Virus record (IMG/VR): IMGVR_UViG_3300012992_000307
DNA from: a virus
DNA: 13,604 nucleotides
Reading direction: 5' to 3' (one strand)
In this document: positions 1 through 13,604 of the stretch, one piece after another
How positions within the stretch are numbered: the stretch's first letter is position 1
Layout of the letters: every line of letters starts with the position of its first letter
Notes under the pieces: model-generated
Databases searched by the model: none
What the model was told of the DNA's origin: nothing
What the model saw: only the letters and a program-made list of their open reading frames with translations
Translations under genes and position numbers: made by a program

Positions 1-257
1 GAGTCGTGCACAGCATGATACGATTTAAATTGTCAGACTATTCATGCAATACTTTACTACGCTAAAGTAATAAAGTGTCAAGTGCATTTTATTAAAGTAA
101 CCTTGCAATAATACAAGAACACGCTGCAGCAGATCATAAACAAAAATACCAGGCCGTGACAGATTGTACTAAATTTAGAACTTGCTACTTGCTATATATG
201 AGTTTATAATTATAAGTGTCAAGGGGAAAGGATAAGGCCTTATTTAGTAACTGTAGT
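1..257. repeat. Left inverted terminal repeat (257 bp)
   Basis: Base-by-base comparison shows 1-257 equals the reverse complement of 13348-13604 with no mismatch. Identity stops at 258 (c versus t). Confidence 0.97.
182..210 (+). promoter_or_regulatory. Inward-facing early promoter inside the left ITR (TTGCTA-N17-TATAAT)
   Basis: -35 TTGCTA lies at 182-187, followed by a 17-nt spacer and -10 TATAAT at 205-210. The -35 sits within a tandem heptamer CTTGCTA-CTTGCTA (181-194). It is about 90 nt upstream of the first + strand gene. Confidence 0.5.
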
Positions 258-301
258 CAAGAAACACTAAATTCTATACCAGATTAAGGAGGTATAACAC
301 A

Positions 302-664
302 ATGTTTAATTTTTCGAACGTAAACAAGGGAACAAGTAAATTTGATTTTCAAATTCCCGAAAATACTGAGTTTTGTAAACTGTCAGAATTGCAGGCAGTA
401 TCTGTCCCGATTGTAGTGCGTGGTTTCTACATCAATAAGAAGGGTAAATTCGCCGACCATCCTGTCGCAATCGTAACATATGGTGAAAATGTAAAGCTAG
501 TCGACTTGCCATCTCATATGACAGATACAATTACAGACTTAATGTCTGATGACGATGCTGTATCTGAAATCAATGCTGGTCGCTGCGGCCTTAAGCCTAC
601 ATCTTACACTTCTAAAAAGTACAATCGGCAGTGCTATAGTGCAGATTTTTACAACATTGAATAA
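302..664 (+). CDS. Hypothetical early protein (120 aa), family not recognised
   Basis: ATG at 302 is preceded by AAGGAGG (286-292) with a 9-nt spacer. It is the first gene downstream of the left ITR promoter and ends 4 nt before the consensus promoter at 668. No motif was recognised by eye. Confidence 0.8.
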   Translation: MFNFSNVNKGTSKFDFQIPENTEFCKLSELQAVSVPIVVRGFYINKKGKFADHPVAIVTYGENVKLVDLPSHMTDTITDLMSDDDAVSEINAGRCGLKPTSYTSKKYNRQCYSADFYNIE

Positions 665-667
665 CTG

Positions 668-696
668 TTGACAATCTTTTAAATAGTTACTATAAT
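668..696 (+). promoter_or_regulatory. Perfect consensus sigma-A/sigma-70 promoter (TTGACA-N17-TATAAT), candidate late promoter
   Basis: TTGACA at 668-673, a 17-nt spacer at 674-690, and TATAAT at 691-696. It lies in the 134-nt gap between the 120-aa gene and the lysin gene. Confidence 0.65.
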
Positions 697-750
697 AACA
701 ATAGAGGTTGCCCAGAATCTCTTGTTGCCATTATATCCCCTTTTTGTGCG

Positions 751-784
751 GTGCAATCCTTAACAGGGTTGCACTTATTTTTAT
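751..784 (+). terminator. Intrinsic terminator/attenuator between the consensus promoter and the lysin gene
   Basis: A 10-bp stem GTGCAATCCT (751-760) / AGGGTTGCAC (765-774, one G-U pair) with loop TAAC is followed by TTATTTTTAT (775-784). It ends 1 nt before the lysin RBS AGGAG (785-789). Confidence 0.6.
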
Positions 785-798
785 AGGAGTTAAAAATT

Positions 799-1260
799 AT
801 GAAATCAATATCAGAAATCGCTCTATCATATTTAGGAGCTAGACAGGGTGGAACAAAACACCTTAAAATTTTAAAAATTTACAACTCAAATAAACCGCTG
901 CCTAGAGGTTATGCAGTGAAGCCGACTGATAATTGGTGTGCGACATTTGTCAGTGCTTGTGCTATCAAATGCCATATAGGTAAATCAATTTATGAGTGTG
1001 GTGCTAACAGGATGTTAGAAAAATTTAAAAAACATGGGTGGTTAGTATCACCCGATAAAGTAGCTAAAAATGATATAATTTTTTATGATTGGCAGGTGAC
1101 GGGGAATTGGTATGACCACGTCGGTATAATTTATAAAGTCACTAAAAATTATGTTTATGTAGTAGAGGGTAATAAGTCACATAAAGTCGGTACCAGGTGC
1201 ATAATTAAGGCAAGCCTTAACAACACTAAAAAATATAGAATTGCTAGAATAGGAGAATAA
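799..1260 (+). CDS. CHAP-domain peptidoglycan hydrolase (endolysin, single-domain)
   Basis: The CHAP catalytic signature is present: Cys in DNWCATFVS, His in YDHVGII, then VVEGN. RBS AGGAG lies at 785-789. At 153 aa it has no room for a cell-wall-binding domain. Confidence 0.85.
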   Translation: MKSISEIALSYLGARQGGTKHLKILKIYNSNKPLPRGYAVKPTDNWCATFVSACAIKCHIGKSIYECGANRMLEKFKKHGWLVSPDKVAKNDIIFYDWQVTGNWYDHVGIIYKVTKNYVYVVEGNKSHKVGTRCIIKASLNNTKKYRIARIGE

Positions 1261-1263
1261 AAA

Positions 1264-1458
1264 ATGCAGGACGTAGTTAATATCATATCACAGGTAGGTT
1301 TCCCAATTTTTGTAGCCATATGGATGCTTTATAAAACAAGTAAAGACAGTGAGGAGATGAGGGAAAGTATCAACGAATTAAAGAACGCTATCACACTTTT
1401 GACAAGTGAAGTAGCACATCATGATAATAATGGAGATAAAAACAATGCAGACTCTTAA
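1264..1458 (+). CDS. Holin-like protein, BhlA/UviB family type
   Basis: The 64-aa protein has one N-terminal TM segment (VGFPIFVAIWMLY) followed by KTSKDSEE and a charged helical tail. This resembles BhlA (..FYVMKTSKERESKL..). It lies immediately downstream of the lysin, with its RBS AGGAG inside the lysin 3' end. Confidence 0.7.
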   Translation: MQDVVNIISQVGFPIFVAIWMLYKTSKDSEEMRESINELKNAITLLTSEVAHHDNNGDKNNADS

Positions 1459-2404
1459 GAGAAAATACAGGGATAATATATCCCTATATGATTTTAAAGA
1501 CAAAAAACAGAATGTAGTTGATATGGTTGACTACATGTTAAATAGGACCAATGCTATGTTCACATGGAAAGGGCTGCCCGACACAATCCCCGCCTGGATT
1601 TTAGAGCTATACTTGCAGACAAATGGAAATGTGATAATTTACAAGTATAACGATAATTTGTATGCTTTTATAGGTGGGTTAGGTGGAGAACCTGATGTGT
1701 ATTTTATGCCAACTATAGCCACGATAGCAAGTCCCGCTCTAAACATATCGAAACAGCTTAAAATACATGAGGAATGTGAGGTTGTTTATAATGATAGCAA
1801 TCTTAAGGGCCTGTTGCCACTTTTAAATAAATATGCTTCTATGCAGGCAGAAAACGAACTATCAATAAGCGTAGCTCAAATCGTTGGCCGGTTACAGTAT
1901 GCAATTTCTGCAGAAGATGACAGAACAAAAAAATCTGCAGAAAGATTTATACAAGGTCTTTACGAGGGTAACATTGAGATTATTGGTGAAAGCAAGTTTC
2001 TGGATAATGACTTAAAAACTCTACCAGTAGCACAAAGTAGTACATCGACCGCCCTGAAACAATACACGGAATTTGAGCAGTATATAAAAGCAAGTTTATT
2101 TCAAGAGTTAGGTTTATCAGCTAATTATAACATGAAAAGAGAAGCTCTTAACAGTTCGGAGAGTTCTATAAATAACGATATACTTTTTCCGCTTGTTGAT
2201 AATATGCTGGAACAAAGAAAACAGGGTTGCGACCGTATAAATAAATTGTACGGAACAAATATATCTGTAAAACTCAATAGCAGTTGGTCTGATAATCACA
2301 AAGAGGAACAGGCCGTAATTGGAAGTCTTGAAAAAAATGAGGAAACTGCAGACCCGACTAAAACAACCCCGACCGATATAAAAGAGGAGATAAAAAATGA
2401 GTGA
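1445..2404 (+). CDS. Portal / head-tail connector protein (phi29 gp10-like upper collar)
   Basis: By-eye similarity to phi29 gp10: FTWKGLPDTIP..LE (phi29 FEWENLPPTINPSFLE), GGEPDVY (phi29 GQRDVY), and GCDRINKLYGTNISVKL (phi29 ACEKINELYGLNVKVKF). ATG at 1445 follows GGAG (1432-1435). The ORF track's alternative start at 1421 lacks an RBS. Confidence 0.85.
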   Translation: MQTLKRKYRDNISLYDFKDKKQNVVDMVDYMLNRTNAMFTWKGLPDTIPAWILELYLQTNGNVIIYKYNDNLYAFIGGLGGEPDVYFMPTIATIASPALNISKQLKIHEECEVVYNDSNLKGLLPLLNKYASMQAENELSISVAQIVGRLQYAISAEDDRTKKSAERFIQGLYEGNIEIIGESKFLDNDLKTLPVAQSSTSTALKQYTEFEQYIKASLFQELGLSANYNMKREALNSSESSINNDILFPLVDNMLEQRKQGCDRINKLYGTNISVKLNSSWSDNHKEEQAVIGSLEKNEETADPTKTTPTDIKEEIKNE

Positions 2405-3509
2405 AAGCACATTAAATTTATGCTATCCAGATGGCATAATCGGCAATGGAATTTTTACCGATTTGCAGAAACTGGATGTACCATGGAAGTCAAAAAATAT
2501 AAATACATCACTGGATATAGCTTATTATGGTAAAAATAGTGGACAGAAAATAGTATCACCGTTTATAGATAATTTTACGGCCGATGATACACCCGTTATA
2601 TCTGATGTAAACCGTGCTATTATAGCAAAATGTCTATTTGATGTGTATGGCGAAAACTGGAAACACCTCTGGGATACAACGCAGCAAGAATATAATATGC
2701 TATGGAATACGGATGCAACTATTGAAGTAGACACAACTAACAGCGGTAAAGACAGTCGGACGTCCTCGGGTGAAGGTAGTGGGACAGATAAGCATGTTTT
2801 ATCTGGAACAGATACCACAACAAAGGATCTGACTGACACACACACACTCGGCGGTAGTGATACAGATACTTTATCTATAACAGGCACTAACACTGACAAG
2901 GAAACTGGAACGGACAAAAACAAGGATAATGATATCACATATCATCATCAAAAAACAATTCAGTTTCATCCAGCTGATAGAAATACAAGTACAGTAACAA
3001 ATAAAACGGCAGGATATAACGAAAGTGACTTTGCCAACGACACACAACAGACGACTGTTGATAATACGGCAATTTTGACACATACTTATACGGATAATTC
3101 AGATGCTAACCCGTATGAGGATAAAAACGGAAAAGATGCTGCGTGGAGAAACTCGGATGAAACTGACAGCGAACGGACTGAAACGAAAGACCTGACCACA
3201 ACGCATGATTTAAATGAAACTGATACTACAACTCATAGTTACGGGAAAACAGACACCGAAACAATCAAAGGCACAGACACGGCCACAACCTACGGCCGTA
3301 CAGACTCTGAAACTATGAGTAACAAAAACCGCAATACAGAAAACGGGACAAATGATTTTACTGGAAAGGAAACAACCCGTAGAACAGGTAATATCGGGAT
3401 CACAACCAATCAGCAGATGATACAGGCTGAGCGGGATCTGTGGAAATGGAATTTTTTCAGTCAGATTTTCGCAGATGTAGACAGATACTTGACATTAGCA
3501 GTATATTGA
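2397..3509 (+). CDS. Putative lower collar / tail tube adaptor protein with a Thr/Asp-rich repetitive core
   Basis: It sits directly after the portal, as phi29 gene 11 follows gene 10, with an 8-nt overlap and RBS GAGGAG. The globular N-terminal and C-terminal parts flank about 220 aa of degenerate T-D-T/GTD repeats. The function is assigned from synteny only. Confidence 0.5.
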   Translation: MSESTLNLCYPDGIIGNGIFTDLQKLDVPWKSKNINTSLDIAYYGKNSGQKIVSPFIDNFTADDTPVISDVNRAIIAKCLFDVYGENWKHLWDTTQQEYNMLWNTDATIEVDTTNSGKDSRTSSGEGSGTDKHVLSGTDTTTKDLTDTHTLGGSDTDTLSITGTNTDKETGTDKNKDNDITYHHQKTIQFHPADRNTSTVTNKTAGYNESDFANDTQQTTVDNTAILTHTYTDNSDANPYEDKNGKDAAWRNSDETDSERTETKDLTTTHDLNETDTTTHSYGKTDTETIKGTDTATTYGRTDSETMSNKNRNTENGTNDFTGKETTRRTGNIGITTNQQMIQAERDLWKWNFFSQIFADVDRYLTLAVY

Positions 3510-3518
3510 TACTATAAT
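3489..3518 (+). promoter_or_regulatory. Internal promoter upstream of the capsid cassette (TTGACA-N18-TATAAT)
   Basis: TTGACA at 3489-3494 and TATAAT at 3513-3518. It overlaps the last codons of the preceding gene and lies 40 nt upstream of the ATG at 3558. Confidence 0.5.
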
Positions 3519-3557
3519 AATCAAAGAGATAAATTTTAGGAAAGGAGATAAATTTAT

Positions 3558-3806
3558 ATGAATGGATATCAGATTGTAGACTTAAAAGACACTGCGCTTT
3601 CGGGAGTGGGAACTAAAGTTAGTGGTGTTTTTGAGTCGATTAAGAACAGTAACAGAAAACCGCTATTACTGACAGGAATAGTAATTGATGGTGCAGAAAT
3701 GAACAGTATTTTTGTATCGGCGACCATTACAAGTGGAAACTATGTAATATCAGCCTACGGAAAAACGATAACAGTTAAACCAGATGACACAATCACGGAG
3801 GCCTGA
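3558..3806 (+). CDS. Small beta-rich protein (82 aa), probable virion component; function unknown
   Basis: RBS AAGGAG sits 8 nt upstream. It ends 2 nt before the capsid gene, and its composition suggests a small all-beta domain rather than a helical scaffold. Confidence 0.7.
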   Translation: MNGYQIVDLKDTALSGVGTKVSGVFESIKNSNRKPLLLTGIVIDGAEMNSIFVSATITSGNYVISAYGKTITVKPDDTITEA

Positions 3807-3808
3807 CA

Positions 3809-4972
3809 ATGGAAGTAAAACAGATTTATGACATCATGAACACAGTTACTAATGAGGTTCTCGGAAAGACCGATTTAGTAAAAGAAGATTTAAGTAACAT
3901 TGTTGACGTTGGAACTGAAGTTTTCAATGCGGATGCAGTTGATAACTATGTTCGTTCACTCGTTGACCATATCGGTAAAGTTGTTTTTGTCAACCGCCCT
4001 TATACAGGAATTGCCCCGTCAGTTCTCATGGATGGGTGGGAGTATGGCAGCGTTCTTGAAAAAATCATGGTAACAAAACTTCCAGAGGCCGTTGAAAACG
4101 AGAGTTGGAATTTACAGAATGGAGCGTCTTATGATGTAAATGTTTTCCACAAGCCTGAAGTATCCGCCAAGTTTTTCAACAAGAGGGTTACTTTTGACAT
4201 TGAAATGTCAATTACTCGTGATCAGGTAAAGAGTTCGTTTGATAATGCAGAGCAGCTCAATGGTTTCATATCCATGATTTACACCGCTATTGACAAGTCT
4301 ATGACTGTCAAGACTGATAATCTTATTTTAAGGACTATCGACAGTATGATTGGAGAAACCCTCGCTGCTGACTTTTCTGACGGTAAATATTCTGAGGGTT
4401 CTGGAATCAAGGCCGTAAACCTTTTAAAGCTCTACAACGATGAGCACGGAACAAAACTCACACCTGCACAGGCAAGGATTAACCCTGACTTTATCCGTTA
4501 TGCCAGCTACATTATACAGTTGTATAAGTCAAGGCTTGCAGGTATCTCTACATTATTTAATATCGGGGGTACGGATAAGTTTACATCATCCGACAGACTT
4601 AAGACGATCTACCTTGCAGAGTTTGCTTCTGCAGCTGGGGTTTTTCTCTACGATGCAAACGGACAGTTAAAAGATGGTAATATCGCTTTACCACAGGCAG
4701 AAACCGTACCATATTGGCAGGCGTCTGGACCGGGTTTCAATTACAGTGATACATCTAAGATTTCAATTGTAACAGGTTCTGGAAAGACAGTTGAGGCAAG
4801 CGGAATCCTCGGTGTCATGTTTGATAGAGATGCACTTGGTGTTTCAAATCTTGAGCGTACTGTCGATAGTGTCTACAACGGCAAGGGTAGATTTTTCAAC
4901 AACTTCTATCACTTCACGAGCGGTTACTTCAATGATAAAAACGAAAACTTCGTTGTTTTCTTTGTAGCGTAA
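3809..4972 (+). CDS. Major capsid protein (phi29 gp8-like, without Ig-like insertion)
   Basis: The N-terminal region YDIMNTVTNE...NYVRSLVDHIGKVVFV parallels phi29 gp8 YDIVNAIRNS...DFITSLVDRIGLVVI. The 387-aa gene has RBS GGAGG at 3797-3801. It is bracketed by its own promoter and a very strong terminator, as expected for the most abundant virion protein. Confidence 0.85.
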   Translation: MEVKQIYDIMNTVTNEVLGKTDLVKEDLSNIVDVGTEVFNADAVDNYVRSLVDHIGKVVFVNRPYTGIAPSVLMDGWEYGSVLEKIMVTKLPEAVENESWNLQNGASYDVNVFHKPEVSAKFFNKRVTFDIEMSITRDQVKSSFDNAEQLNGFISMIYTAIDKSMTVKTDNLILRTIDSMIGETLAADFSDGKYSEGSGIKAVNLLKLYNDEHGTKLTPAQARINPDFIRYASYIIQLYKSRLAGISTLFNIGGTDKFTSSDRLKTIYLAEFASAAGVFLYDANGQLKDGNIALPQAETVPYWQASGPGFNYSDTSKISIVTGSGKTVEASGILGVMFDRDALGVSNLERTVDSVYNGKGRFFNNFYHFTSGYFNDKNENFVVFFVA

Positions 4973-4985
4973 CCGTTGACTTGAG

Positions 4986-5029
4986 CCCCCCAATGTTTCA
5001 CGTGAAACATTGGGGGGGTGTTTTATTTA
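4986..5029 (+). terminator. Strong rho-independent terminator after the capsid gene
   Basis: A 32-nt perfect palindrome CCCCCCAATGTTTCAC|GTGAAACATTGGGGGG (4986-5017) is followed by a T-tract (5021-5029). It is unidirectional, with no T-tract on the other strand. Confidence 0.8.
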
Positions 5030-5043
5030 TAGGAGCAATAAAA

Positions 5044-6684
5044 ATGACAGTAACAGTAGATAATGTAACAGGTTCAAAATGGGTGTTATACCCCCTTGAC
5101 GATAAAGGGGTAAAAGATGGTAATTTTTTACCAATTCTTGTTTTAGAAACTTCAGTAAAATGGGCTGATTTAGATTCGTATCTGGGGCCAATGACGTTTG
5201 AAACGTGGGATATAAACTCACCTGCTTTTGCAGGTGCTAATGATTGGAATACAAGGGTTTTTATTTCAACCGCTGACTATTTTAAAATATATGTATCAAA
5301 CAATAGAATATTTTATGTGGTAACTACTAAATCTGGAGATAAAGTAATTCAACATGACCACCCACCTTTTGGTTCTAAAAGGGCGATAGCTTGTGTATAT
5401 TTTATAGTAGTGCACACCTCAGACGATTATTATGCAGGGGGTACTTATCTTAATGAACCTGACATCGATTACGAGGATTATAACGTAGTATATCCATCTG
5501 CTACAACTATGGGTTCTTGCTCTCCAATATCTAGTATAACATTTGGTACTGGTGGTGACCCCTTGTTATTATGTCCCCGTACAAAAAAGAATGATACGGC
5601 AATCCGTGAGATGATAGGAGCGAGTAAAAGGCAACCTGACAAGGATGACCCGTATGACGGCGGTGATGACAAGGGGGATGATGATAACACCCCAGGTGAC
5701 TACGACCACACATCCGACCCCGTCCCAGAACCTGATTTACCAACCGTATCAGTAACGGATAGTGGACTTGTGACATTGTTTGCACCTACGGAATCTCAGC
5801 TAAAAGCACTTGCAGACTATCTGTGGAGTGATGCTTTTTCATTGGATAATTTTAAAAAGATGTTAAATAATCCTATGGACTGTATATTGGGATTGACTAT
5901 AATACCTGTAAATGTACCGCATGGTGGTGCTAGAGAAATCACAGTTGGCAATATTGTTACTACGGTTAGTTGTGATATCTGCCCGACACAATATGTAAAA
6001 GTTGATTGTGGTACTTTTACATTCAACCGTCATGATATGACTAATAGTTATCTGGACTACTCACCTTATAGCAAGTGCTACTTGTATCTACCATTTATCG
6101 GAGTGCAGGAAATCAACATTGATGATTTTATGCAGTCTACAATGCACGTAGTTTACCATGTGGATATTTTAACGGGTGCGATGTTCTGTTACGTTATGCG
6201 TGATAATAGTGTGATGTATACTTATATGGGACAATGTGCGGAAAATGTACCGTTATCATCTAGCAGTTATTCAAATACCATCGGTTCAATTATGTCAGCG
6301 GCTGCATCAATAGTCGGGGTTGCTTCAGTTGCGGCAACGGGTGGAGCGAGTGCACCAGTCGCAGCTGGATTATTAGCCGGAGCATCTACTTCAACGGCTA
6401 ACGCAGTCACAAGCCTTAAGCCGTCCGTAGCTCATAGTGGGTCTATCGGTGGTGGTGCAGGTATCATGGGTGTCAATTATCCATATTTGATATTTAACAC
6501 ACCGCACGTTTCAATCCCATCAAAACAACGTCATTATACTGGATACCCATCTAATCAGATTGTTAAATTATCTACTTTGAGCGGGTTTAATGTAATACAG
6601 GCCATAAATTTATCTGTATCAGGTGCCAATGACTCTGAAATGAACGAAATAGAAAATATATTAAAAGGAGGTGTTATATTATGA
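5044..6684 (+). CDS. Tail knob protein (phi29 gp9 middle and C-terminal parts) fused to a novel N-terminal domain
   Basis: ATG at 5044 follows AGGAG (5031-5035). The track's TTG start at 4981 would run through the terminator hairpin. The C-terminal half parallels phi29 gp9: YSPYSKCYLYLPFIG versus MMYPYCVTEITDF. The Ala/Gly-rich hydrophobic loop ...GGASAPVAAGLLAGASTSTANAVTSL parallels ...GGSALGMASSVTGMTSTAGNAVLQM. The tail GYPSNQIV...FNVIQ...SGANDSEMNEIENILKGGVIL parallels GYKINRV..FNYVQ..ISGDINNNDLQEIRTIFDNGITLW. The N-terminal ~190 aa are unrelated and are joined by an acidic, Pro-rich linker. Confidence 0.75.
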   Translation: MTVTVDNVTGSKWVLYPLDDKGVKDGNFLPILVLETSVKWADLDSYLGPMTFETWDINSPAFAGANDWNTRVFISTADYFKIYVSNNRIFYVVTTKSGDKVIQHDHPPFGSKRAIACVYFIVVHTSDDYYAGGTYLNEPDIDYEDYNVVYPSATTMGSCSPISSITFGTGGDPLLLCPRTKKNDTAIREMIGASKRQPDKDDPYDGGDDKGDDDNTPGDYDHTSDPVPEPDLPTVSVTDSGLVTLFAPTESQLKALADYLWSDAFSLDNFKKMLNNPMDCILGLTIIPVNVPHGGAREITVGNIVTTVSCDICPTQYVKVDCGTFTFNRHDMTNSYLDYSPYSKCYLYLPFIGVQEINIDDFMQSTMHVVYHVDILTGAMFCYVMRDNSVMYTYMGQCAENVPLSSSSYSNTIGSIMSAAASIVGVASVAATGGASAPVAAGLLAGASTSTANAVTSLKPSVAHSGSIGGGAGIMGVNYPYLIFNTPHVSIPSKQRHYTGYPSNQIVKLSTLSGFNVIQAINLSVSGANDSEMNEIENILKGGVIL

Positions 6685-7160
6685 GTTTTGAAGTTAAAAT
6701 CGGAGTATGTAAAGATGCTAAAAACAAAGTGAGTAAATCCCCGTCATGGAATTATACACTTTCAGGGCAGTTAAAAGATAGTTGTGATATTTTAAATCCG
6801 ACTATAAGACTTATAATCGGAGATAGTAAAGATATCAAATTACCAACAATTACAAAGTGTAATTATATGTACATTGGTAACTTTAATCGATACTACTTTA
6901 TCACTGGCTTTAATATCGTACGAAATACGATTTTAGAGGTAACTGGTCATGTGGATGTACTAAACACATATAAAGACCAGATAAAAGCCAACACTGGATT
7001 GATTTTAAGAAGTGAAAGTAATTACAGTAAATTTTTAGATGATGGTGCTTTTAAAATTTTTAGCAATCCTTATGTTGTAACTAAAAAGCTGACGGGAGAA
7101 TCTTTTGCCAAGAATCCATCTTTTATATTAGCTGTGTCGGGTGGCGGCAAATCATCTTAA
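6681..7160 (+). CDS. Tail protein resembling the N-terminal domain of phi29 gp9 tail knob
   Basis: NYMYIGNFNRYYFITGFNIVRNTILEVTGHVDVLNTY parallels phi29 gp9 residues [42 protein letters not shown]. The start overlaps the upstream stop (ATGA), and the RBS is AAGGAGG. Confidence 0.65.
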   Translation: MSFEVKIGVCKDAKNKVSKSPSWNYTLSGQLKDSCDILNPTIRLIIGDSKDIKLPTITKCNYMYIGNFNRYYFITGFNIVRNTILEVTGHVDVLNTYKDQIKANTGLILRSESNYSKFLDDGAFKIFSNPYVVTKKLTGESFAKNPSFILAVSGGGKSS

Positions 7161-7178
7161 TCTATCTACCATGTGTAA

Positions 7179-7297
7179 TGCGCAAGATTGTGTACTTTGT
7201 CTATTGAATATATACTTGCGCAAGTATACATATTGCACAAATATACTTGCGCAAGATTGTGTACTTTGTCTATTGAATATATACTTGCGCAAGTATA
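7179..7297. repeat. Direct duplication (2 x 50 bp, period 69) carrying palindromic operator-like sites
   Basis: 7179-7228 and 7248-7297 are identical. The region contains a 20-bp perfect palindrome ATATACTTGC|GCAAGTATAT (7279-7298), a 19/20 copy (7210-7229), and half-conserved sites centred at 7181/7182 and 7250/7251. The spacing between site centres is 38, 31 and 38 bp. Confidence 0.9.
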
Positions 7298-7301
7298 TAA
7301 T
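7273..7301 (+). promoter_or_regulatory. Promoter TTGAAT-N17-TATAAT with a 20-bp palindromic operator filling the spacer
   Basis: -35 TTGAAT at 7273-7278 and -10 TATAAT at 7296-7301. The palindrome at 7279-7298 occupies the spacer and half of the -10. The upstream repeat copy has the same -35 (7204-7209) but only a weak -10 (TACATA, 7227-7232). Confidence 0.6.
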
Positions 7302-7352
7302 AAAGACAGTTAAAGAAACAGCAACACAGCATAGAAAGCGGAGGTATAAACA

Positions 7353-7631
7353 ATGACAAAGCAGAAATTAAAAGAAGCATATACAAACTGGAATAAAGAA
7401 ATCACAAAGCTGGATAGCAGAAAAACAGAAATTTTCCACAAATTGCAGGAAATGTGCGAAGAGAAAGGCGACGGGCACCGTTGGTGCTGCATAGAAAAGC
7501 TGGTAGAAGAATTAGCAAAGAAAGGTCATGTCTACCAAGCAATGCAACTTGTAAATGAATATTACCAGATATGCGGGCAGGAAGAAGCATTGAGAAATCT
7601 TGCAACCGCAACAAATAATTTTGAAATATAG
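7353..7631 (+). CDS. Small helical protein (92 aa), function unknown
   Basis: RBS GGAGGT (7339-7344) precedes the ATG at 7353. It is the first gene downstream of the operator-controlled promoter. No family was recognised. Confidence 0.75.
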   Translation: MTKQKLKEAYTNWNKEITKLDSRKTEIFHKLQEMCEEKGDGHRWCCIEKLVEELAKKGHVYQAMQLVNEYYQICGQEEALRNLATATNNFEI

Positions 7632-7643
7632 GGAGGTGTAAGC

Positions 7644-7991
7644 ATGAATAAATATGTTGAAAAAGTAGAGCAATACAAAGAAAAAGTGCTGAAACCTGCA
7701 CTTGAAAAATTAAAGGCTGAACACGAAGAAGCAGAAGACTTTTACCGTGATACTGGTTATGACAGATATTACAAGAAAATGCAGAAGTGCGAAAGCCAGA
7801 TTGAAGAAATAGAACAATATTTGAAAGCAGGAACAATGGAGGTAAGAGAGGTTGCAGCAAGTGAATATAAAGAATTGCTGGAATTAAGACAAAAAATGAA
7901 AAGCATAAAAAACAAAGTATTTTATCTTTCAAAAGAACTGCCAATGTGTGCAGATTTAATAAACCTGCAAGACATTTTAAGGGACTATTAG
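7644..7991 (+). CDS. Coiled-coil protein (115 aa); possible scaffolding protein, unproven
   Basis: RBS GGGAGGTG precedes it. The protein is strongly K/E-rich with heptad-like helical sequence, and its size and character are comparable to phi29 gp7 scaffold. No sequence motif supports the assignment. Confidence 0.7.
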   Translation: MNKYVEKVEQYKEKVLKPALEKLKAEHEEAEDFYRDTGYDRYYKKMQKCESQIEEIEQYLKAGTMEVREVAASEYKELLELRQKMKSIKNKVFYLSKELPMCADLINLQDILRDY

Positions 7992-7997
7992 CAAGCG

Positions 7998-8104
7998 GCG
8001 GCAGTACCCCAGCTGGTAGAGGGACGGGCACGGTGAAATAAAACGGCAGCAGCCGTTGTCGGTCCGTGTCTATGATGTCGCTGGTTCAAATCCAGCCTGC
8101 CGCA
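7998..8104 (+). ncRNA. tRNA-like RNA (107 nt) with canonical acceptor, D and T arms but an elongated rod replacing the anticodon arm
   Basis: Acceptor GCGGCAG (7998-8004) pairs with CTGCCGC (8097-8103), with discriminator A at 8104. The D arm is CCCC-AGCTGGTA-GAGG (8007-8022). The T arm is GCTGG-TTCAAAT-CCAGC (8080-8096). The central part is ACGGGC (8024-8029) / GTCCGT (8062-8067) enclosing AACGGC-AGCA-GCCGTT (8042-8057). I count about 60% GC in an AT-rich genome. No 7-nt anticodon loop can be drawn. Confidence 0.55.
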
Positions 8105-8148
8105 TTACTGGGAAAAGCAACTACAAACCATACCAGATACAAAGAAAT

Positions 8149-8180
8149 CCCTCTTACTTATAAAGTAAGAGGGTTTTGTT
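8149..8180. terminator. Bidirectional rho-independent terminator at the convergence point of the two arms
   Basis: An 11-bp perfect stem CCCTCTTACTT (8149-8159) / AAGTAAGAGGG (8163-8173) is followed by TTTTGTT on the + strand. It is preceded by AAAGAAAT, which gives a T-tract on the - strand. It abuts the ATPase stop codon (8179-8181). Confidence 0.8.
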
Positions 8181-9297
8181 ATGATAAAATACTATTGGAT
8201 TTACACCACTGTATATAATTGCGGACTATCTCACCCACAATATTATCTTGGTAAAACACTTTTTCATTTTCAAAATATTCACAGATTTTTGACACAATCC
8301 GATTTTTATTCATACCTTGGTTTATTTTTCTTGTTTGAAATATCAGCGGACTTGTATTTTCGGTAGAAAAAACCAGATCATCCGGATGTTTTATATCACC
8401 TGTTTTTCGATGGATATATGTAAAATTATAATCATCTACCATTACGATTTCACATTGCAACAGGTCTCTGTTGAATTTTATAAAATATATAAACTGGATG
8501 TCTTTCGGTCTAAATTCGATTGGCTTGTGTGGATACATCCCGATTTCCCACGCACCGTTAGTTATCATGTCAAGCCTACTGTTATCAAATGCAAAATATT
8601 TGGAATTAGCTTTATTATGCTTAAGACTCTCGGCATACTCAACAGCAACCTTTAAATCTTTTTGCCCGTATTTGTAAACATCTATCTGTCCAGGTTTCAT
8701 TTGTTCAATATGGTTCAGTCCCATTTCACCAAAATATGGGCAGTATTTATTAACCGTATTTCCTACCATGAAAATAGTAGCATTATCACGATATCTGATA
8801 ATAGTACTTAATACGTTCATAAACTGGACAAACTCATCGGGTAAATACCCATTTCTTGACATAAACTCATCAAATAAAATATTTGTGACATCGGGAAAAC
8901 TTGCAGATTTGTCATGCTCCATTTCTGTCAAAGCAAAACTATATGCAAACGGTCGTTCCATTCTAATAATTTTTTCTGTTTCATCATCCTCTTTTGCTAA
9001 ATACCATGAACGTCGATAATATACAACCGTATTATAAGCGTTATTTGTCAGCTTGCTTATAAAGCCATTGGATATGTGATTATTAAAAAGAGTTGACCCG
9101 CCCTTATTCATGAAGTCCTCTCTCCATCTGCGGATAATAGCTCCCTGATTTTTTCCGTTGCTCTCCCAGAAATCACTCAATATTTTTGATAATACCGCAT
9201 ACGTTTTACCATTACTACGACCACCAAAAATAACATTGTAGGTGGCTTTTTCTTTTAAGATATTTTTAAGACTGTAAAAATTATTTTTTCCTAACAT
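8179..9297 (-). CDS. DNA encapsidation (packaging) ATPase, phi29 gp16-like
   Basis: Walker A is FGGRSNGKTY near the N-terminus and Walker B is NILFDEF. The 372-aa size is typical of the family. The ATG follows the polymerase stop codon directly, with RBS GAGG inside the polymerase 3' end. Confidence 0.85.
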   Translation of the reverse strand: MLGKNNFYSLKNILKEKATYNVIFGGRSNGKTYAVLSKILSDFWESNGKNQGAIIRRWREDFMNKGGSTLFNNHISNGFISKLTNNAYNTVVYYRRSWYLAKEDDETEKIIRMERPFAYSFALTEMEHDKSASFPDVTNILFDEFMSRNGYLPDEFVQFMNVLSTIIRYRDNATIFMVGNTVNKYCPYFGEMGLNHIEQMKPGQIDVYKYGQKDLKVAVEYAESLKHNKANSKYFAFDNSRLDMITNGAWEIGMYPHKPIEFRPKDIQFIYFIKFNRDLLQCEIVMVDDYNFTYIHRKTGDIKHPDDLVFSTENTSPLIFQTRKINQGMNKNRIVSKICEYFENEKVFYQDNIVGEIVRNYIQWCKSNSILS

Positions 9298-11556
9298 TTA
9301 TATTACCTCTCTATCTACTGTCACACTGTCTAAGAAGTTTTTAAATTCCTCTGACATACTCATTTTATAGCTTGACTCTTTTAGGTTTATCGCACTTTTT
9401 TCTTTTATTTTCTGATAGATGCATAGATAATCTTTTATGACTGCTTCAAAACCGTCATCTAAATATGTGGCTATCAGCTTATCACTCTCACCCTCTGGAA
9501 TGACCATATCATCACTAAACACCTTAAACGGGTCCTTATATTTTGATAAAAATTTCACACCCGCTCTTTTTGGAATACCTGCAACTGTTATATGTAATTC
9601 ATCACCTTGCTTTACTAAGTATCTTTTTGCACCTAAAGTTTTAAATTCTGTATACGGGCAACCCTGAGTTTCATAATCCCACACCCCTAATTGTTTTGAC
9701 TTGCCTTTGATTGTTTTAGGTCTTGCTAATCCAGTATTTATCTTATAAAATTTTAAGACTGTATCTATTTTTTGAGTTATATTCTGATTATATCCAGTAA
9801 TATATTCCATATGCTTGTCAGCATTTAAGCATTTTATGCTGTCAGTGTCACTATAAATATAATCATCTCCAAACTCTATTATTCCAGACCATAAATTCCT
9901 ACGTGCATATGCCGTAACAAATAGGCCCCATGGATAGTATGTAAATCGTTTGTGACTTTTATTCTCATTGTATTTGTCTAGCTGCTGCTGATAGTCACCC
10001 TCTTCAGATATCCAATCATTGTTTTCGTATGTTATCAGCATTCGTAAAATATCCATTACCATCATGCCATATTCACTATTAAGCATACCCTTTTTCATTA
10101 GATATTCATCTTCTTTACCAGATACACCCTTAAGAGTTGTTTTACCTACATAATAATCTAGGGTTGCCTCTATTATTGGCTGTGGAAGATACCCCCATTT
10201 CCATGTGAGTAGATCGGTTATTTTATATCTGTCAAAATCGTAACATCTCGTTATTACCTCCATGTCTACATTAGTAGTTGTTGTAGATATTTCATCAGCT
10301 GACCATACACGGCCGTTATCAAAAACACCGTTTTTTATATTATAGCATTTATTTTTTGATAAATATACATCATACACACCCGATTTTTTTCTAAGATTTT
10401 TAAAAGTAATTCTGAAACAACAGGCATAATTTTTTATATATGTTTTTATTTCTGCCAAAGTCAGGGTTGCACAATCTATCCTTGTACATTTACCCATCGG
10501 ATATTTTTCTGATAACATGACAGCAGGGTAGCTACTTGTAAAATCAAAACTGTCAATTTTACCCTTAATATCACGGCCCACCCATAGATAAGATGCGTGA
10601 GTAAATCCACCTGCAAATCCCTCTTTTAAAATGTTGTAGCATTCCAGATCTGGAATGACCAACTCATTCATGAGTTTTACATACTTATTTTTGTATTTGC
10701 GATTGTAACACTTATTTCGGGTTTCTCTTCTGACATATCCTGTATTAGTATAAGGCACCTGCGATAGATCATTTCCTTCAAATTCCATTTTTTCTTTTAT
10801 GATCGCATTAAGGCCCGTTACATCATGCCTTATATATCCAAGTTCTTTATCTGTCAGCGGAGTTTTTGGACCCCTGATCAGCTTATAATCTAAGTCACCT
10901 ACCATCTTTTTCACGTGATATCTAGTGAGATTTTCACATGATTTTTCAAAACTTAAACCTGTAAGCCTTAAACTGTCACGAAATTCCAGGCCACTCTCAG
11001 TGAGTGCATAAATCGGTTTTCTTGTGGTATCTGTAAAAACCGTGTTCCACTCAAAGTATTTTCTCATAAATTGAAACTCATACCCCAGATTGTGAACATA
11101 GACTATAAATCTTAATCTGTCACCATTACCATTTATAATATCTGATATAGACGGTTGACATTGACAAGTGGTGTAACTTGTCAGCACTTCACACAACTCT
11201 AAAAATTCGTCCCAAGTACGACCAAATATGCACTGACCGTTGATTCCAAATTGCCATACATACATACAAGCATATTTTTCATCGTTTGTTTCCCAGCTAC
11301 TAGTTTCTATATCAAAGGACAATGGTATATTATAACAGTAATCAGAATATGTACAGTTACTATTTTTAATCTTATGAGCTGACAATTTACCGACAAAAAA
11401 ATCACAAACCGATTTTTGTTTTGAAATAGGTTTTGTAAAAGTCATATAATCATTTACTATTTTTCTTATATAATCTTCACCACCCTCATTCCATTCAATC
11501 ATTGTTTCAGATATGTAAAATGGCAGTGATTTTTTATTCTGTCGATAGTTGCCCAT
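9298..11556 (-). CDS. Family-B DNA polymerase, protein-primed (phi29 gp2-like)
   Basis: Exonuclease motifs: Exo I SFDIETSS, Exo II VHNLGYEFQF, Exo III YIRHDV. Polymerase motifs: A is DFTSSYPAVM, B is KGMLNSEYGMM, C is YSDTDSIK, and the KxY motif is GAKRYL. I chose the ATG at 11556 (MGNYRQ...), which is preceded by AAGGTG just after the upstream stop. The track's 11616 start overlaps the upstream gene by 46 nt. Confidence 0.92.
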   Translation of the reverse strand: MGNYRQNKKSLPFYISETMIEWNEGGEDYIRKIVNDYMTFTKPISKQKSVCDFFVGKLSAHKIKNSNCTYSDYCYNIPLSFDIETSSWETNDEKYACMYVWQFGINGQCIFGRTWDEFLELCEVLTSYTTCQCQPSISDIINGNGDRLRFIVYVHNLGYEFQFMRKYFEWNTVFTDTTRKPIYALTESGLEFRDSLRLTGLSFEKSCENLTRYHVKKMVGDLDYKLIRGPKTPLTDKELGYIRHDVTGLNAIIKEKMEFEGNDLSQVPYTNTGYVRRETRNKCYNRKYKNKYVKLMNELVIPDLECYNILKEGFAGGFTHASYLWVGRDIKGKIDSFDFTSSYPAVMLSEKYPMGKCTRIDCATLTLAEIKTYIKNYACCFRITFKNLRKKSGVYDVYLSKNKCYNIKNGVFDNGRVWSADEISTTTTNVDMEVITRCYDFDRYKITDLLTWKWGYLPQPIIEATLDYYVGKTTLKGVSGKEDEYLMKKGMLNSEYGMMVMDILRMLITYENNDWISEEGDYQQQLDKYNENKSHKRFTYYPWGLFVTAYARRNLWSGIIEFGDDYIYSDTDSIKCLNADKHMEYITGYNQNITQKIDTVLKFYKINTGLARPKTIKGKSKQLGVWDYETQGCPYTEFKTLGAKRYLVKQGDELHITVAGIPKRAGVKFLSKYKDPFKVFSDDMVIPEGESDKLIATYLDDGFEAVIKDYLCIYQKIKEKSAINLKESSYKMSMSEEFKNFLDSVTVDREVI

Positions 11557-11570
11557 ATTGCTATAACACC

Positions 11571-12362
11571 TTAATAAAATACATCTTTTATATCTTCTGG
11601 AGTGACAGAAAACCACCCAGAACCTCCGCCTACATCGGGTTGTTTTTCTGTTTTTTCAAGATTGAGTTTTTTCAGTTCCTCTTCAAATTCTTGTTTAAAT
11701 AATTCACTGTTATCAGTCACATTTTTTAAATCATGTGTGCTGCGGTGTTTTTTCTCAATCCTATTGAATACAATTTTTAAGTCTTTTCTACTGTCATAAG
11801 GTATACCATACTTGCCTTCTCTCCATTTTGTAAATGCAGGCCAAAAACCCTCATCGGCAAATTTCGCATTTTCCGTTGCCAATTTTCTCATTTCATTATA
11901 TTTTTTACTGCCTTTCTTATATTTTCCCGCTTTCACTCCTTTTTTTAACCAACCACGAACACGCTCATCTTGCGATTTTCCTTTGATTTTAGCAATCTCC
12001 TTTTTGCTTTTACCCTCAGCCTCAGCCTTGCGCTGCCTTCTTTTTTGGTCGATTATCCTTTCGCGTTTTACTTTTTCTTTTCGTGCTTCTTTATACCGGC
12101 TTGTTTTTTCACGATTAAAAGACTGTTCTCTGATAGCCTCATCAATCAATTTTTCTTTTGTATCTTTACCTTTGACACCAAATTTCCCACCCCCTTCCGT
12201 TATAAATTTATCATAGGCGTCATGCGACACCTTGTCACTCCTTAAGCGTGATACTCTTTTATTTAGCTTTTTGCCTTGTTCACTGACTAAAGATTTGAGT
12301 TCTGGAACAGATAGCTTTTTTAAGTCTTTTACTGTCAACTCCCCAAATTTTTCAAGTGTCAT
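11571..12362 (-). CDS. Putative terminal protein (basic, 263 aa)
   Basis: It lies immediately upstream of the protein-primed polymerase, as phi29 gene 3 precedes gene 2, and its size is similar to phi29 TP. The centre is extremely Lys/Arg-rich. The N-terminal LSVPELKSLVSEQGKKLNKRVSRL resembles a SAP/HeH DNA-binding motif. The ATG at 12362 has RBS GGTGA; the track uses GTG at 12374. Confidence 0.6.
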   Translation of the reverse strand: MTLEKFGELTVKDLKKLSVPELKSLVSEQGKKLNKRVSRLRSDKVSHDAYDKFITEGGGKFGVKGKDTKEKLIDEAIREQSFNREKTSRYKEARKEKVKRERIIDQKRRQRKAEAEGKSKKEIAKIKGKSQDERVRGWLKKGVKAGKYKKGSKKYNEMRKLATENAKFADEGFWPAFTKWREGKYGIPYDSRKDLKIVFNRIEKKHRSTHDLKNVTDNSELFKQEFEEELKKLNLEKTEKQPDVGGGSGWFSVTPEDIKDVFY

Positions 12363-12366
12363 TCTT

Positions 12367-12837
12367 TTAATCACCTTTCTTGTAAATTACTGGAAGTATC
12401 AGACCCACAAGTTCATTATTCTCATAAACATATAAGGGTGATCTGTCGTTCGTTCCTTCAAAGTGTGCATCCGATTCAAAAAACTTCAAATAATCTTCCT
12501 TAACATAGATTGCTTTATCATCCACCATAAACTTATGGAGATTCGTTTTCTTTTGGAATGTTGTACTCTGAACTATCGAATTAGTATCAACAGCAGGTTT
12601 CAAATCCCCTGGCTCCTTTAAGAAAGTTTCACCCTGTATTGGTTTGATATCCTTCCAAATTTTGTCTATATCTAGATAGAATTGATTCCTTGGAATTCCT
12701 ATTATCCATTGCCCTTCAGGACACATCCAAACTTTATCTTCTGTGATAAAATAGTAAATATTGAAGTCCTTGTGCTTCCATCCATCCCTCGCATCTGCTG
12801 CTTTTAGCAAATTCTGCTGTACTTTCAAATAATTCAT
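12367..12837 (-). CDS. Hypothetical early protein (156 aa)
   Basis: This is an ATG-started ORF in the early operon, ending a few nt before the TP start. No motif was recognised. By position it could be a replication accessory protein (SSB or DNA-binding protein analogue). Confidence 0.75.
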   Translation of the reverse strand: MNYLKVQQNLLKAADARDGWKHKDFNIYYFITEDKVWMCPEGQWIIGIPRNQFYLDIDKIWKDIKPIQGETFLKEPGDLKPAVDTNSIVQSTTFQKKTNLHKFMVDDKAIYVKEDYLKFFESDAHFEGTNDRSPLYVYENNELVGLILPVIYKKGD

Positions 12838-12873
12838 TATTCTTTACCTATCCTTTCATGAATTCTTTTAATC

Positions 12874-13026
12874 TCATTTTTCTTTTTTCTTCATTTTTAC
12901 AAATTTGATATCACCACCACCATGAGCGGTAATATCTCTAGCAAGGGTTATAATTCGCCTTATTGTATGATCTTTTTCCTCTAACTGGCATTTCTGATTA
13001 TACCTTTTTCTCTCTTCACTTGTCAT
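12874..13026 (-). CDS. Small basic early protein (50 aa), below the ORF-track length cut-off
   Basis: Manual translation gives MTSEERKRYNQKCQLEEKDHTIRRIITLARDITAHGGGDIKFVKMKKKEK*. RBS GAGGTG sits 6 nt upstream of the ATG (13026). It fills the otherwise empty 204-nt gap in a tightly packed operon. Confidence 0.55.
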   Translation of the reverse strand: MTSEERKRYNQKCQLEEKDHTIRRIITLARDITAHGGGDIKFVKMKKKEK

Positions 13027-13041
13027 TCTAAACACCTCACT

Positions 13042-13320
13042 TTAATCATAAATTTCGTAATCATTTTCAGATACAAAACATCTATGGCCATCGACTGATA
13101 AATCCAGTCCTGTTATTATCTGCCCACGATAATGAAAATAAAAATTTCTATACACTACATTAGATATTTCTAAGGCGTAAAGTGTAGCGTTCAGAACTGC
13201 CCTTGAAATAGTTGCCTGATTGCTTCTATGACCGTAGCATCGGGTATCTTCATTCTGGATGTAAATCTGCTCCTGTATTGTTCCTAAAATTCTTTCGGTG
13301 GTATTCTTATAATGTTTCAT
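13042..13320 (-). CDS. Hypothetical early protein (92 aa), first gene of the right-arm operon
   Basis: The ATG at 13320 (MKHYKNTTER...) is preceded by AAGGAG with a 9-nt spacer, just inside the unique sequence next to the ITR. The track's start at 13389 would place coding sequence inside the ITR and lacks an RBS. Confidence 0.7.
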   Translation of the reverse strand: MKHYKNTTERILGTIQEQIYIQNEDTRCYGHRSNQATISRAVLNATLYALEISNVVYRNFYFHYRGQIITGLDLSVDGHRCFVSENDYEIYD

Positions 13321-13347
13321 GTTCTTAATCTCCTTGTGTGCTAATAA

Positions 13348-13604
13348 ACTACAGTTACTAAATAAGGCCTTATCCTTTCCCCTTGACACTTATAATTATA
13401 AACTCATATATAGCAAGTAGCAAGTTCTAAATTTAGTACAATCTGTCACGGCCTGGTATTTTTGTTTATGATCTGCTGCAGCGTGTTCTTGTATTATTGC
13501 AAGGTTACTTTAATAAAATGCACTTGACACTTTATTACTTTAGCGTAGTAAAGTATTGCATGAATAGTCTGACAATTTAAATCGTATCATGCTGTGCACG
13601 ACTC
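13348..13604. repeat. Right inverted terminal repeat (257 bp)
   Basis: This is the reverse complement of 1-257, a perfect match. Confidence 0.97.
13395..13423 (-). promoter_or_regulatory. Inward-facing early promoter inside the right ITR (mirror of 182-210)
   Basis: This is the identical sequence to the left ITR promoter by virtue of the ITR. It points into the replication operon. Confidence 0.5.

Follow-up and report, generated by a model that had tools for sequence, protein, structure and literature searches.

A review published in 2024 counted more than 2000 phi29-like entries, with clusters of 11–14 kb among them, and already reported split tail knobs, small lower collars and absent fibre genes (PMC11476376). 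In the Astrithr-like cluster, the tail knob is encoded by two genes, one for a protein of about 150 amino acids (aa) and one for a larger protein, and there are no fibre genes (PMC11476376). We analysed a virus record from IMG/VR, IMGVR_UViG_3300012992_000307, a sequence of 13,604 nt that is referred to here, in its entirety, as the window. The window very probably represents, from end to end, the linear genome of a virulent podophage of the phi29-like kind, in the clade that has the Astrithrvirus-like phages as its cultured members. This genome is real and complete; smaller ones of its kind exist and its architecture is not unusual, the only unusual part being a cassette of about 1 kb that carries a tRNA-like RNA.

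The Astrithr-like phages share with the window the block of adjacent genes, in the same order, for a terminal-protein candidate, a protein-primed family B DNA polymerase (PolB) and a packaging ATPase, together with a CHAP-type lysin, inverted terminal repeats (ITRs), a split knob and the absence of fibre genes. They also have a gene between those for the portal and the capsid, for which no direct similarity to the lower-collar candidate of the window was detected. They differ from the window in genome size (10.4–11.9 kb for the cultured members, with 11,569 bp for astrithr, 11,885 bp for Phanie and 10,390 bp for Vibrio K58 g2), in having a single gene direction, in the inverted structural module, in the reversed order of the knob genes and in their Gram-negative hosts. 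The gene order in astrithr and Phanie is terminal-protein candidate, PolB, ATPase, a small gene, portal, X, capsid, small knob, large knob and lysin. Phage phi29 resembles the window in its protein-primed PolB motifs, gp10 portal, gp8 capsid, gp16 ATPase and gp9 knob domains, and in its convergent transcription units with a bidirectional terminator, but it has a genome of 19.3 kb, an ITR of 6 bp, a packaging RNA (pRNA), a knob encoded by a single gene and an ATPase gene at the end of the late operon. It also has a separate gp12 appendage, a gp8.5 head fibre, a gp13 lysin and the p4 and p6 regulators, none of which was found in the window.

The completeness of the genome is indicated by its termini. 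The ITR is 257 nt long (positions 1–257 and 13348–13604), its two copies are 100% complementary, and it lies flush with both sequence ends; a perfect repeat of this length at both ends is not the result of chance. Each copy contains a sigma70-like promoter, directed inwards at 182–210 in the left ITR and in mirror image at 13395–13423 in the right ITR, and the repeats are presumed to act as replication origins and as terminal-protein attachment sites. Homologous ITR sequence (89–94% identity) also terminates L053 and L055, two relatives assembled independently from other samples (related loci are designated by L numbers where they need to be told apart), and the first base of L055 lies within about 3 nt of the first base of the window. 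End-anchored ITRs of 100–300 bp were found in 12 IMG/VR relatives, and the range across relatives is 18–266 bp, with 18 bp in astrithr and 171 bp in the finished genome of the cultured phage Phanie. The first-pass annotation, made from the sequence alone, had described the window as a complete, ITR-bounded genome of a small protein-primed podophage, and this description is borne out by the perfect repeat, the homologous ITRs of the relatives and the PolB profile described below; its remark that long ITRs had been described in few phages is outdated.

It could also be supposed that the ITR is an assembly artefact, or that the true genome is circular or longer. This supposition would explain the absence of the terminal reiteration typical of protein-primed genomes, as the window begins with GAGTCG, without reiteration, and several relatives, including Phanie, begin with GGG (the ends compared include those of L002, L011 and L016–L018). 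We nevertheless consider it highly improbable, given the homologous ITRs in independently assembled relatives and in the finished Phanie genome, the complete gene set, the length of the window, which fits the 12–13.9 kb of most relatives, and the termination of the ITR at the identical repeat nucleotide at both window ends. Since the GAGTCG start without reiteration differs from the GGG of several relatives, a few terminal nucleotides may be absent from the assembly. The exact termini and the covalently bound protein are predicted from the sequence.

The genes are arranged in two convergent arms with little non-coding DNA, as the first reading of the sequence had indicated. The plus-strand arm (302–7991) and the minus-strand arm (8179–13320) converge at a bidirectional intrinsic terminator (8149–8173), which consists of an 11-bp hairpin with T-runs on both strands and is conserved in L055 and L056, and both the GC skew and the AT skew change sign near 8 kb. 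After correction of the start codons against close relatives (portal, 1445; 546-aa protein, 5044; PolB, 11556; terminal-protein candidate, 12362; and the last minus-arm gene, 13042–13320, taken in the 92-aa form found in L053 and L055), the window contains 17 protein genes and is 90.5% coding, with a GGAGG-like ribosome-binding site before nearly every gene. Its G+C content is 36%.

The PolB gene (9298–11556, minus strand; 752 aa) matches phrog_1907 (E-value 4e-73), and a profile built from 14 PolB sequences matched the phi29 DNA polymerase 1XHX with an E-value of 5e-19, in an alignment spanning the Exo III region to motif C, with the KxY motif aligned separately. There was no Pfam match, and a PDB search with the single sequence was likewise empty. 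PolB is therefore a divergent member of the protein-primed type. As claimed from the first reading, all the exonuclease and polymerase motifs are present. With residues numbered on the 772-aa open reading frame (ORF), these are Exo I (D102/E104), Exo II (N176 and E180), Exo III (Y261/D265), motif A (D358..Y363-P364), motif B (K509..N513..G517), motif C (D590-T-D592) and KxY (K664/Y666). The residues of Exo I, Exo III, motifs A, B and C and KxY are invariant among the PolB relatives, and N176 of Exo II is conserved in 90% or more of them. Between motifs A, B and C, in the regions that accommodate TPR1 and TPR2 in phi29, the sequences were aligned or similar in length. The Exo II motif has the sequence HNLGYE, in which E180 (11077–11079) replaces the catalytic Asp66 of phi29, and glutamate is the majority residue at this position in the 14-sequence alignment.

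Directly upstream of PolB, as the first-pass annotation had noted, lies the gene for a basic protein of 263 aa (11571–12362, minus strand; isoelectric point 9.8, 27% lysine plus arginine). Over a stretch of some 70 aa, this protein shares 37–42% identity with the protein encoded ahead of PolB in astrithr and Phanie, which has been termed the p3 counterpart (PMC11476376), and its position, size and charge, together with the literature on these relatives, make it the candidate terminal protein (PMC11476376). On the other side of PolB, a gene for a 372-aa protein (8179–9297, minus strand) encodes a packaging ATPase of the phi29 gp16 type (PF05894, 2e-12; phrog_2150, 2e-27). No small terminase subunit was found in Pfam and PHROG scans of the window proteins. 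A pRNA typifies phi29 and the Bacillus phages close to it, and not the group as a whole (PMC11476376). A search across all Rfam families gave no pRNA match at E ≤ 1, the ITR and left-end region folded no better than shuffled sequence (z +0.5), and a pRNA would not fit into the short non-coding stretches that remain once the ITRs and the cassette are set aside.

The plus-strand arm encodes the virion and lysis proteins. The portal, or upper collar connector, is of the phi29 gp10 type (1445–2404; 319 aa; PF05352, 2e-21; phrog_2038, 1e-38), and the major capsid protein is of the phi29 type (3809–4972; 387 aa; PF25622, 1e-48); the matches to PF25622, PF05352 and PF05894 all exceed the Pfam cut-offs. 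The exact capsid protein had no record in the gene index. A 370-aa protein with a middle part rich in threonine and aspartate (2397–3509) occupies the same position as in relatives and is probably the lower collar, similar to phi29 gp11. Lysis genes stand ahead of the portal: a 153-aa endolysin with a CHAP domain (799–1260; PF05257, 3e-9, likewise above the Pfam cut-off; phrog_21357, 2e-20) and a 64-aa holin (1264–1458; phrog_4898, 1e-15; PF12841 YvrJ, 5e-7).

By analogy with phi29, the 263-aa protein would form a heterodimer with PolB, prime DNA synthesis at both ITR ends through a protein hydroxyl and remain on the 5' ends, with strand-displacement replication proceeding from both ends. The gp16-type ATPase would package unit-length, terminal-protein-capped DNA through the gp10-type portal. 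The virion would combine a capsid of phi29 type and the portal with a lower collar similar to gp11 and a two-protein tail knob, and the cell would be lysed by the holin and the CHAP endolysin.

The portal, capsid and ATPase of phi29 type recognised by the first-pass annotation were thus confirmed by Pfam, but the single tail-knob gene that it proposed was not, as two knob genes are present (5044–6684 and 6681–7160, both on the plus strand). The smaller one encodes a 159-aa protein (g159) related to the N-terminal tube-like domain of phi29 gp9 and C1 gp12, and with 29–31% identity to Phanie gp9 and astrithr gp09. A profile of 59 g159 sequences had exactly two PDB matches, C1 gp12 (4EO2, E-value 3e-3) and phi29 gp9 (5FB4, E-value 0.01), both falling in the N-terminal parts of those proteins. 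These are, to our knowledge, the only two picovirus knob proteins with solved structures. The AlphaFold2 model of g159 had a predicted local distance difference test (pLDDT) score of 73, and its top Foldseek matches were an SPP1 connector chain and phi29 gp9 (probability 1.0 each) and a gene transfer agent neck protein; despite this probability, the matches are weak, with E-values of about 0.01–0.04 and template modelling (TM) scores of about 0.4. The larger gene encodes a 546-aa protein with a variable N-terminal domain, an acidic linker and a conserved C-terminal part. This C-terminal part (aa 218–546) is conserved across the clade, has a Gly/Ala-rich hydrophobic stretch visible directly in the sequence, aligns with residues 496–583 of phi29 gp9, in the last 80–90 residues of that protein (hhalign probability 69%, E-value 4e-5), and shows a weak colinear alignment with the C-terminus of Phanie gp10. 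In L035, the g159-like part and the C-terminal part of the 546-aa protein are fused, in the phi29 order, in one ORF of 524 aa (5351–6922). The scores for a knob split into two proteins are modest, specific and mutually consistent. The two knob genes are separate and in reverse order in the window, L021, L028 and L030; most other relatives also have two separate genes, arranged as in phi29.

The N-terminal part of the large knob protein has a different history. Residues 218–546 are 98% identical to those of P0030, and there is zero similarity before residue 218. Among the many mosaic relatives, the C-terminal 329 aa are 93–98% identical, and the N-terminal domain and acidic linker are exchanged as a unit (5044–5694 in the window); some uncultured relatives carry another N-terminal domain on the knob protein. 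Because unrelated N-termini are found on otherwise 98%-identical proteins, residues 1–217 are probably a receptor-binding module, and host recognition would most likely be mediated by this variable domain. The first-pass annotation was therefore right that a separate appendage, head-fibre, gp13-type lysin or p4-like gene is missing (none was detected in the Pfam, PHROG and NCBIfam scans), and in seeing no recognisable receptor-binding gene it overlooked the swappable domain of the knob protein, which is a candidate for this role.

The split knob also bears on the autonomy of the phage. According to the review, in a passage citing Pourcel et al. (2024), Phanie virions are infectious only once bound to the contractile tail of an unrelated myophage (PMC11476376), and the review suggests that the same behaviour is possible in relatives sharing the split knob (PMC11476376). 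The window has such a knob and no separate fibre gene was found in it, so that a helper-dependent, satellite-like podophage borrowing the adsorption apparatus of its helper, as Phanie does, could be envisaged. We regard this as unlikely: the astrithr-like Salmonella phages were deposited as isolates with Salmonella hosts, and no helper is reported for them in the literature consulted; a variable domain of 217 aa swapped as a module between 98%-identical backbones is the pattern of direct receptor binding; the host is probably Gram-positive, and in such hosts a short knob suffices for phi29-type phages; and no feature of the window points to a helper. A virulent podophage adsorbing with its own knob protein is the reading we prefer.

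The placement of the window was determined by comparison with cultured and uncultured phages. The best cultured protein matches were the Salmonella phages astrithr, Astrid and assan, Acinetobacter phage Phanie, Pectobacterium phage DU_PP_III, Enterobacter phage Entb_47, a Shigella phage and Vibrio phage K58 g2, and the identity to these phages was 50–53% for the capsid, 39–44% for PolB (42–44% for the nearest), 46–47% for the ATPase and 40–43% for the portal. The search for close nucleotide identity to a classified genus found none: no phage record matched the window by megablast, and blastn matched at most 10% of its 7.9-kb core to Astrithr-like phages, at about 66% identity (about 4% in the case of astrithr). 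The genus criterion of the International Committee on Taxonomy of Viruses (ICTV) is at least 70% nucleotide identity across the genome. As these values are far under the threshold, the window is placed by nucleotide comparison outside the genus Astrithrvirus, which itself has no family assignment, and outside every named family. It most likely represents a new genus near the Astrithr-like cluster. The first-pass annotation had also put it outside the described families, and in this it was correct; it had regarded the gene order as peculiar, and here it was not, since the adjacency of PolB and the ATPase is found in astrithr, Phanie and many uncultured relatives.

The uncultured relatives, from ENA, Logan and IMG/VR, are numerous. 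We identified 33 relatives in IMG/VR with capsids 50–72% identical to that of the window, most of them contigs of 12–13.9 kb. The capsid, ATPase and PolB were found in all of them, the portal, the collar-like protein and both knob proteins in nearly all, and a homologue of the terminal protein was detected in about half. The layout with convergent arms occurs in many uncultured relatives, including L010–L020 from IMG/VR, which have ITRs of up to 266 bp, some of the contig ends being incomplete. Two contigs from ENA, ERZ27250232 k141_377031 (12,455 bp) and ERZ27280393 k141_897684 (13,301 bp), match the window with a nucleotide identity of about 92% over 254–7161 and 8185–12376; they have the same gene order and homologous ITRs, and lack the cassette and the gene g156 of the window. 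The backbone of these relatives is about 12.5 kb. The protein clusters of the species to which the window belongs contain hundreds of member sequences, and, among representatives of 50%-identity clusters, 1417 capsid relatives were found at E ≤ 1e-3 and 420 at E ≤ 1e-30. The earlier view of the genome as near-minimal and remarkable at 13.6 kb cannot be maintained, given cultured relatives of 10.4–11.9 kb and the published clusters of 11–14 kb.

The part of the window that distinguishes it from its close relatives is a cassette of 964 nt (7178–8141), inserted after CATGTGTA (7177) and before AAGAAATCC (8142). Close relatives have only 38–60 nt between the stop codon of the small knob gene and the terminator, and the cassette is missing in L053–L057; it is therefore an insertion. 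It contains, in order, two 50-nt direct repeats with ACTTGCGCAAGT palindromes (7179–7297), which overlap a promoter of the form TTGAAT-17-TATAAT (7273–7301, plus strand), the genes g92 (7353–7631, plus strand; 92 aa) and g115a (7644–7991, plus strand; 115 aa), neither of which belongs to a known family in the Pfam, PHROG and NCBIfam scans, and the tRNA-like RNA (7998–8104, plus strand). The promoter palindrome, ACTT-N4-AAGT, is present in three or four copies, one of which overlaps the −10 box. The window has GCGC as the palindrome core, most of the larger phages ACGG/CCGT, and a 69-nt duplication in the window adds one operator copy.

Parts of the cassette were found in 17 IMG/VR contigs of 7–58 kb, with an identity of 75–94% for the promoter part and 91–97% for the RNA part, and these contigs have nothing else in common with the window. 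One of the larger contigs, L052, carries both g92 and g115a, at 95% aa identity. In these contigs, the promoter is followed by a single, variable small ORF and then by the RNA and parA; a parB-like and a PAPS-reductase-like gene come next, and the gene for the small terminase subunit lies farther along. The larger phages are related to Clostridium phage Saumur (their ParB-like protein is 49% identical), a prophage of Enterocloster clostridioformis YL32 that can be induced (PMC10197239). The Saumur genome (L060) has the same promoter architecture at 1600–1690, and a second copy of this promoter type elsewhere. As far as the cassette is concerned, Saumur and L036–L052 thus resemble the window, in that a palindrome-bearing promoter precedes a small variable ORF, with a structured RNA immediately ahead of their parA. 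In all other respects the window is unlike the Saumur-like phages, which are 25–58 kb long (47 kb for Saumur), have a G+C content of 45–47% and carry parA/parB and a small terminase subunit. The cassette ends just before the parA of the donor, and it had no match among the plasmids of PLSDB.

The 0.96-kb cassette was probably copied from a Saumur-like phage onto a backbone of about 12.5 kb. Its palindromes suggest that the promoter is regulated by a regulator of the larger phage. It could, tentatively and with more doubt than confidence on our part, be a mobile expression module shared by unrelated phages of one host and switchable by a co-resident Saumur-like phage, with its tRNA mimic representing an undescribed class of phage non-coding RNA.

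The RNA itself is the best-conserved segment of the cassette. It is 107 nt long and scores 40.2 bits with the Rfam tRNA model, the gathering score being 29. The acceptor stem (7 bp) is perfect and is accompanied by a D arm and by a T arm of canonical form (GGUUCAAAUCC); in the minimum free energy fold, the anticodon arm is replaced by an 8-bp stem and a 30-nt loop with an inner hairpin. ARAGORN calls it only when introns are allowed, as a tRNA-Asp(GUC) with a 27-nt intron at a non-canonical site. As a 7-nt anticodon loop is absent and ARAGORN needs this non-canonical intron, the element is a tRNA mimic and not a standard tRNA. The covariation analysis of 12 copies (about 93% identical) gave 98.8% of cells paired and one compensatory pair, which was not above shuffles; such closely similar copies make it uninformative. 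A 28-mer and a 22-mer from the 3' half of the RNA were absent from the GTDB genomes (one genome for each of 185,579 species), so that neither a donor tRNA nor a host genome was identified. There were no tRNAs in 35 related phage loci, whether introns were allowed or not.

Saumur carries another structured element in place of this RNA (L060, 2040–2130), rich in G+C and with a T-arm-like hairpin (GGCGGGTCCGATTCCCGCC), which was not detected by the Rfam tRNA model; the Saumur annotation has a 96-nt 'hypothetical protein' over this element, at 2031–2126. The RNA may, with low confidence, be recognised by tRNA-processing enzymes and mark the end of the cargo transcript, or it may act as a decoy against a tRNA-directed defence. 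In the former case, it would possibly provide a processing or stabilising signal, recognised by RNase P or RNase Z, where the variable cargo genes end.

The cassette also provides an indication of the host. The closest homologues of the lysin are from phages of Roseburia, Dorea and Enterocloster (38–46% identity), and the holin matches a Bacillota family. Because of these lysin homologues, this holin family and the exchange of a cassette at more than 90% identity with Saumur-like phages, the host is likely to be a member of the gut Lachnospiraceae (Bacillota).

No integrase, repressor or partition gene was found in the Pfam, PHROG and NCBIfam scans of the window. Phage-plasmids of about 29–30 kb exist among the phi29-like entries (PMC11476376), and the window might by the same token be a linear plasmid or phage-plasmid with phi29-like replication genes. 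We give this hardly any credence, as there is no partition, repressor, integrase or toxin-antitoxin gene in the window, a full set of virion, packaging and lysis genes is accommodated within 13.6 kb, and the cassette stops short of the donor's parA.

Besides the start of the sequence, several results weigh against our interpretation of the window as a phi29-like phage of the Lachnospiraceae. The terminal-protein candidate shows no detectable similarity to phi29 gp3. The similarity of the lower-collar candidate to phi29 gp11 is weak: the local hhalign alignment with gp11 residues 32–106 has an E-value of 1e-3, and a profile of 19 collar sequences had gp11 (6QZ9) as its sole PDB match, which is colinear, with an E-value of 0.5 and compositional bias. 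The profile of the C-terminal part of the knob found no PDB match, and the AlphaFold2 model of the 546-aa protein had a pLDDT of 48 and was not used for a fold search. Single-sequence PDB searches with the 567-aa ORF and with the terminal-protein candidate yielded nothing useful. The host is inferred only, the G+C content of the window (36%) being different from that of the Saumur-like contigs (45–47%), and the cultured relatives infect Gram-negative bacteria.

The remaining genes are small. The first gene of the left arm, g120 (302–664, plus strand), encodes an acidic protein with homologues in 7 related loci and no Pfam, PHROG or NCBIfam match. Just upstream of the capsid gene, g82 (3558–3806, plus strand) has homologues in 18 related loci and no match in these same family collections; as its position corresponds to that of the phi29 scaffold gene, it may have a scaffold role. 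The right arm begins with g92b (13042–13320, minus strand; 92 aa), followed by g53 (12874–13035, minus strand), an ORF for a small basic protein with an isoelectric point of 10, and by g156 (12367–12837, minus strand), which is specific to the window, close relatives having an 83-aa gene here. Variation in the early arm is located at 12377–12872, where L055 additionally has a 349-aa PAPS-reductase-like gene (L055 11663–12712), a gene type also found in Saumur-like phages. The small early proteins and the cassette ORFs have no similarity to phi29 gp3, gp4, gp5, gp6 or gp7, and match no NCBIfam family.

Several putative transcription signals were found within the plus-strand arm. Perfect sigma70 consensus sites are present at 668–696 (TTGACA-17-TATAAT) and 3489–3518. 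An 11-bp hairpin with a T-run (750–775) lies downstream of the first of these promoters, just before the lysin gene, and the promoter and hairpin together (668–775) could be an attenuator ahead of the late genes. Directly 3' of the capsid gene, a G+C-rich 14-bp hairpin with a T-run (4986–5017, plus strand) is likely to function as a partial terminator, which may set the ratio of capsid to tail transcripts. Any temporal order of transcription would be predicted from the promoter and terminator sites.

The window leaves the knowledge of minimal tailed-phage genomes unchanged, and adds one species-level member to a large, mostly uncultured clade of protein-primed podophages of 10–14 kb. It probably extends the Astrithr-like clade from Gram-negative hosts to the gut Lachnospiraceae, and, with one N-terminal knob domain swapped, it would illustrate how host range changes in such minimal phages. 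The cassette directly documents gene flow between very dissimilar phages that share one host, as its promoter, cargo genes and tRNA-like RNA were transferred, with a nucleotide identity above 90%, between a virulent podophage of 13 kb and much larger phages (25–58 kb) that are related to a known prophage.

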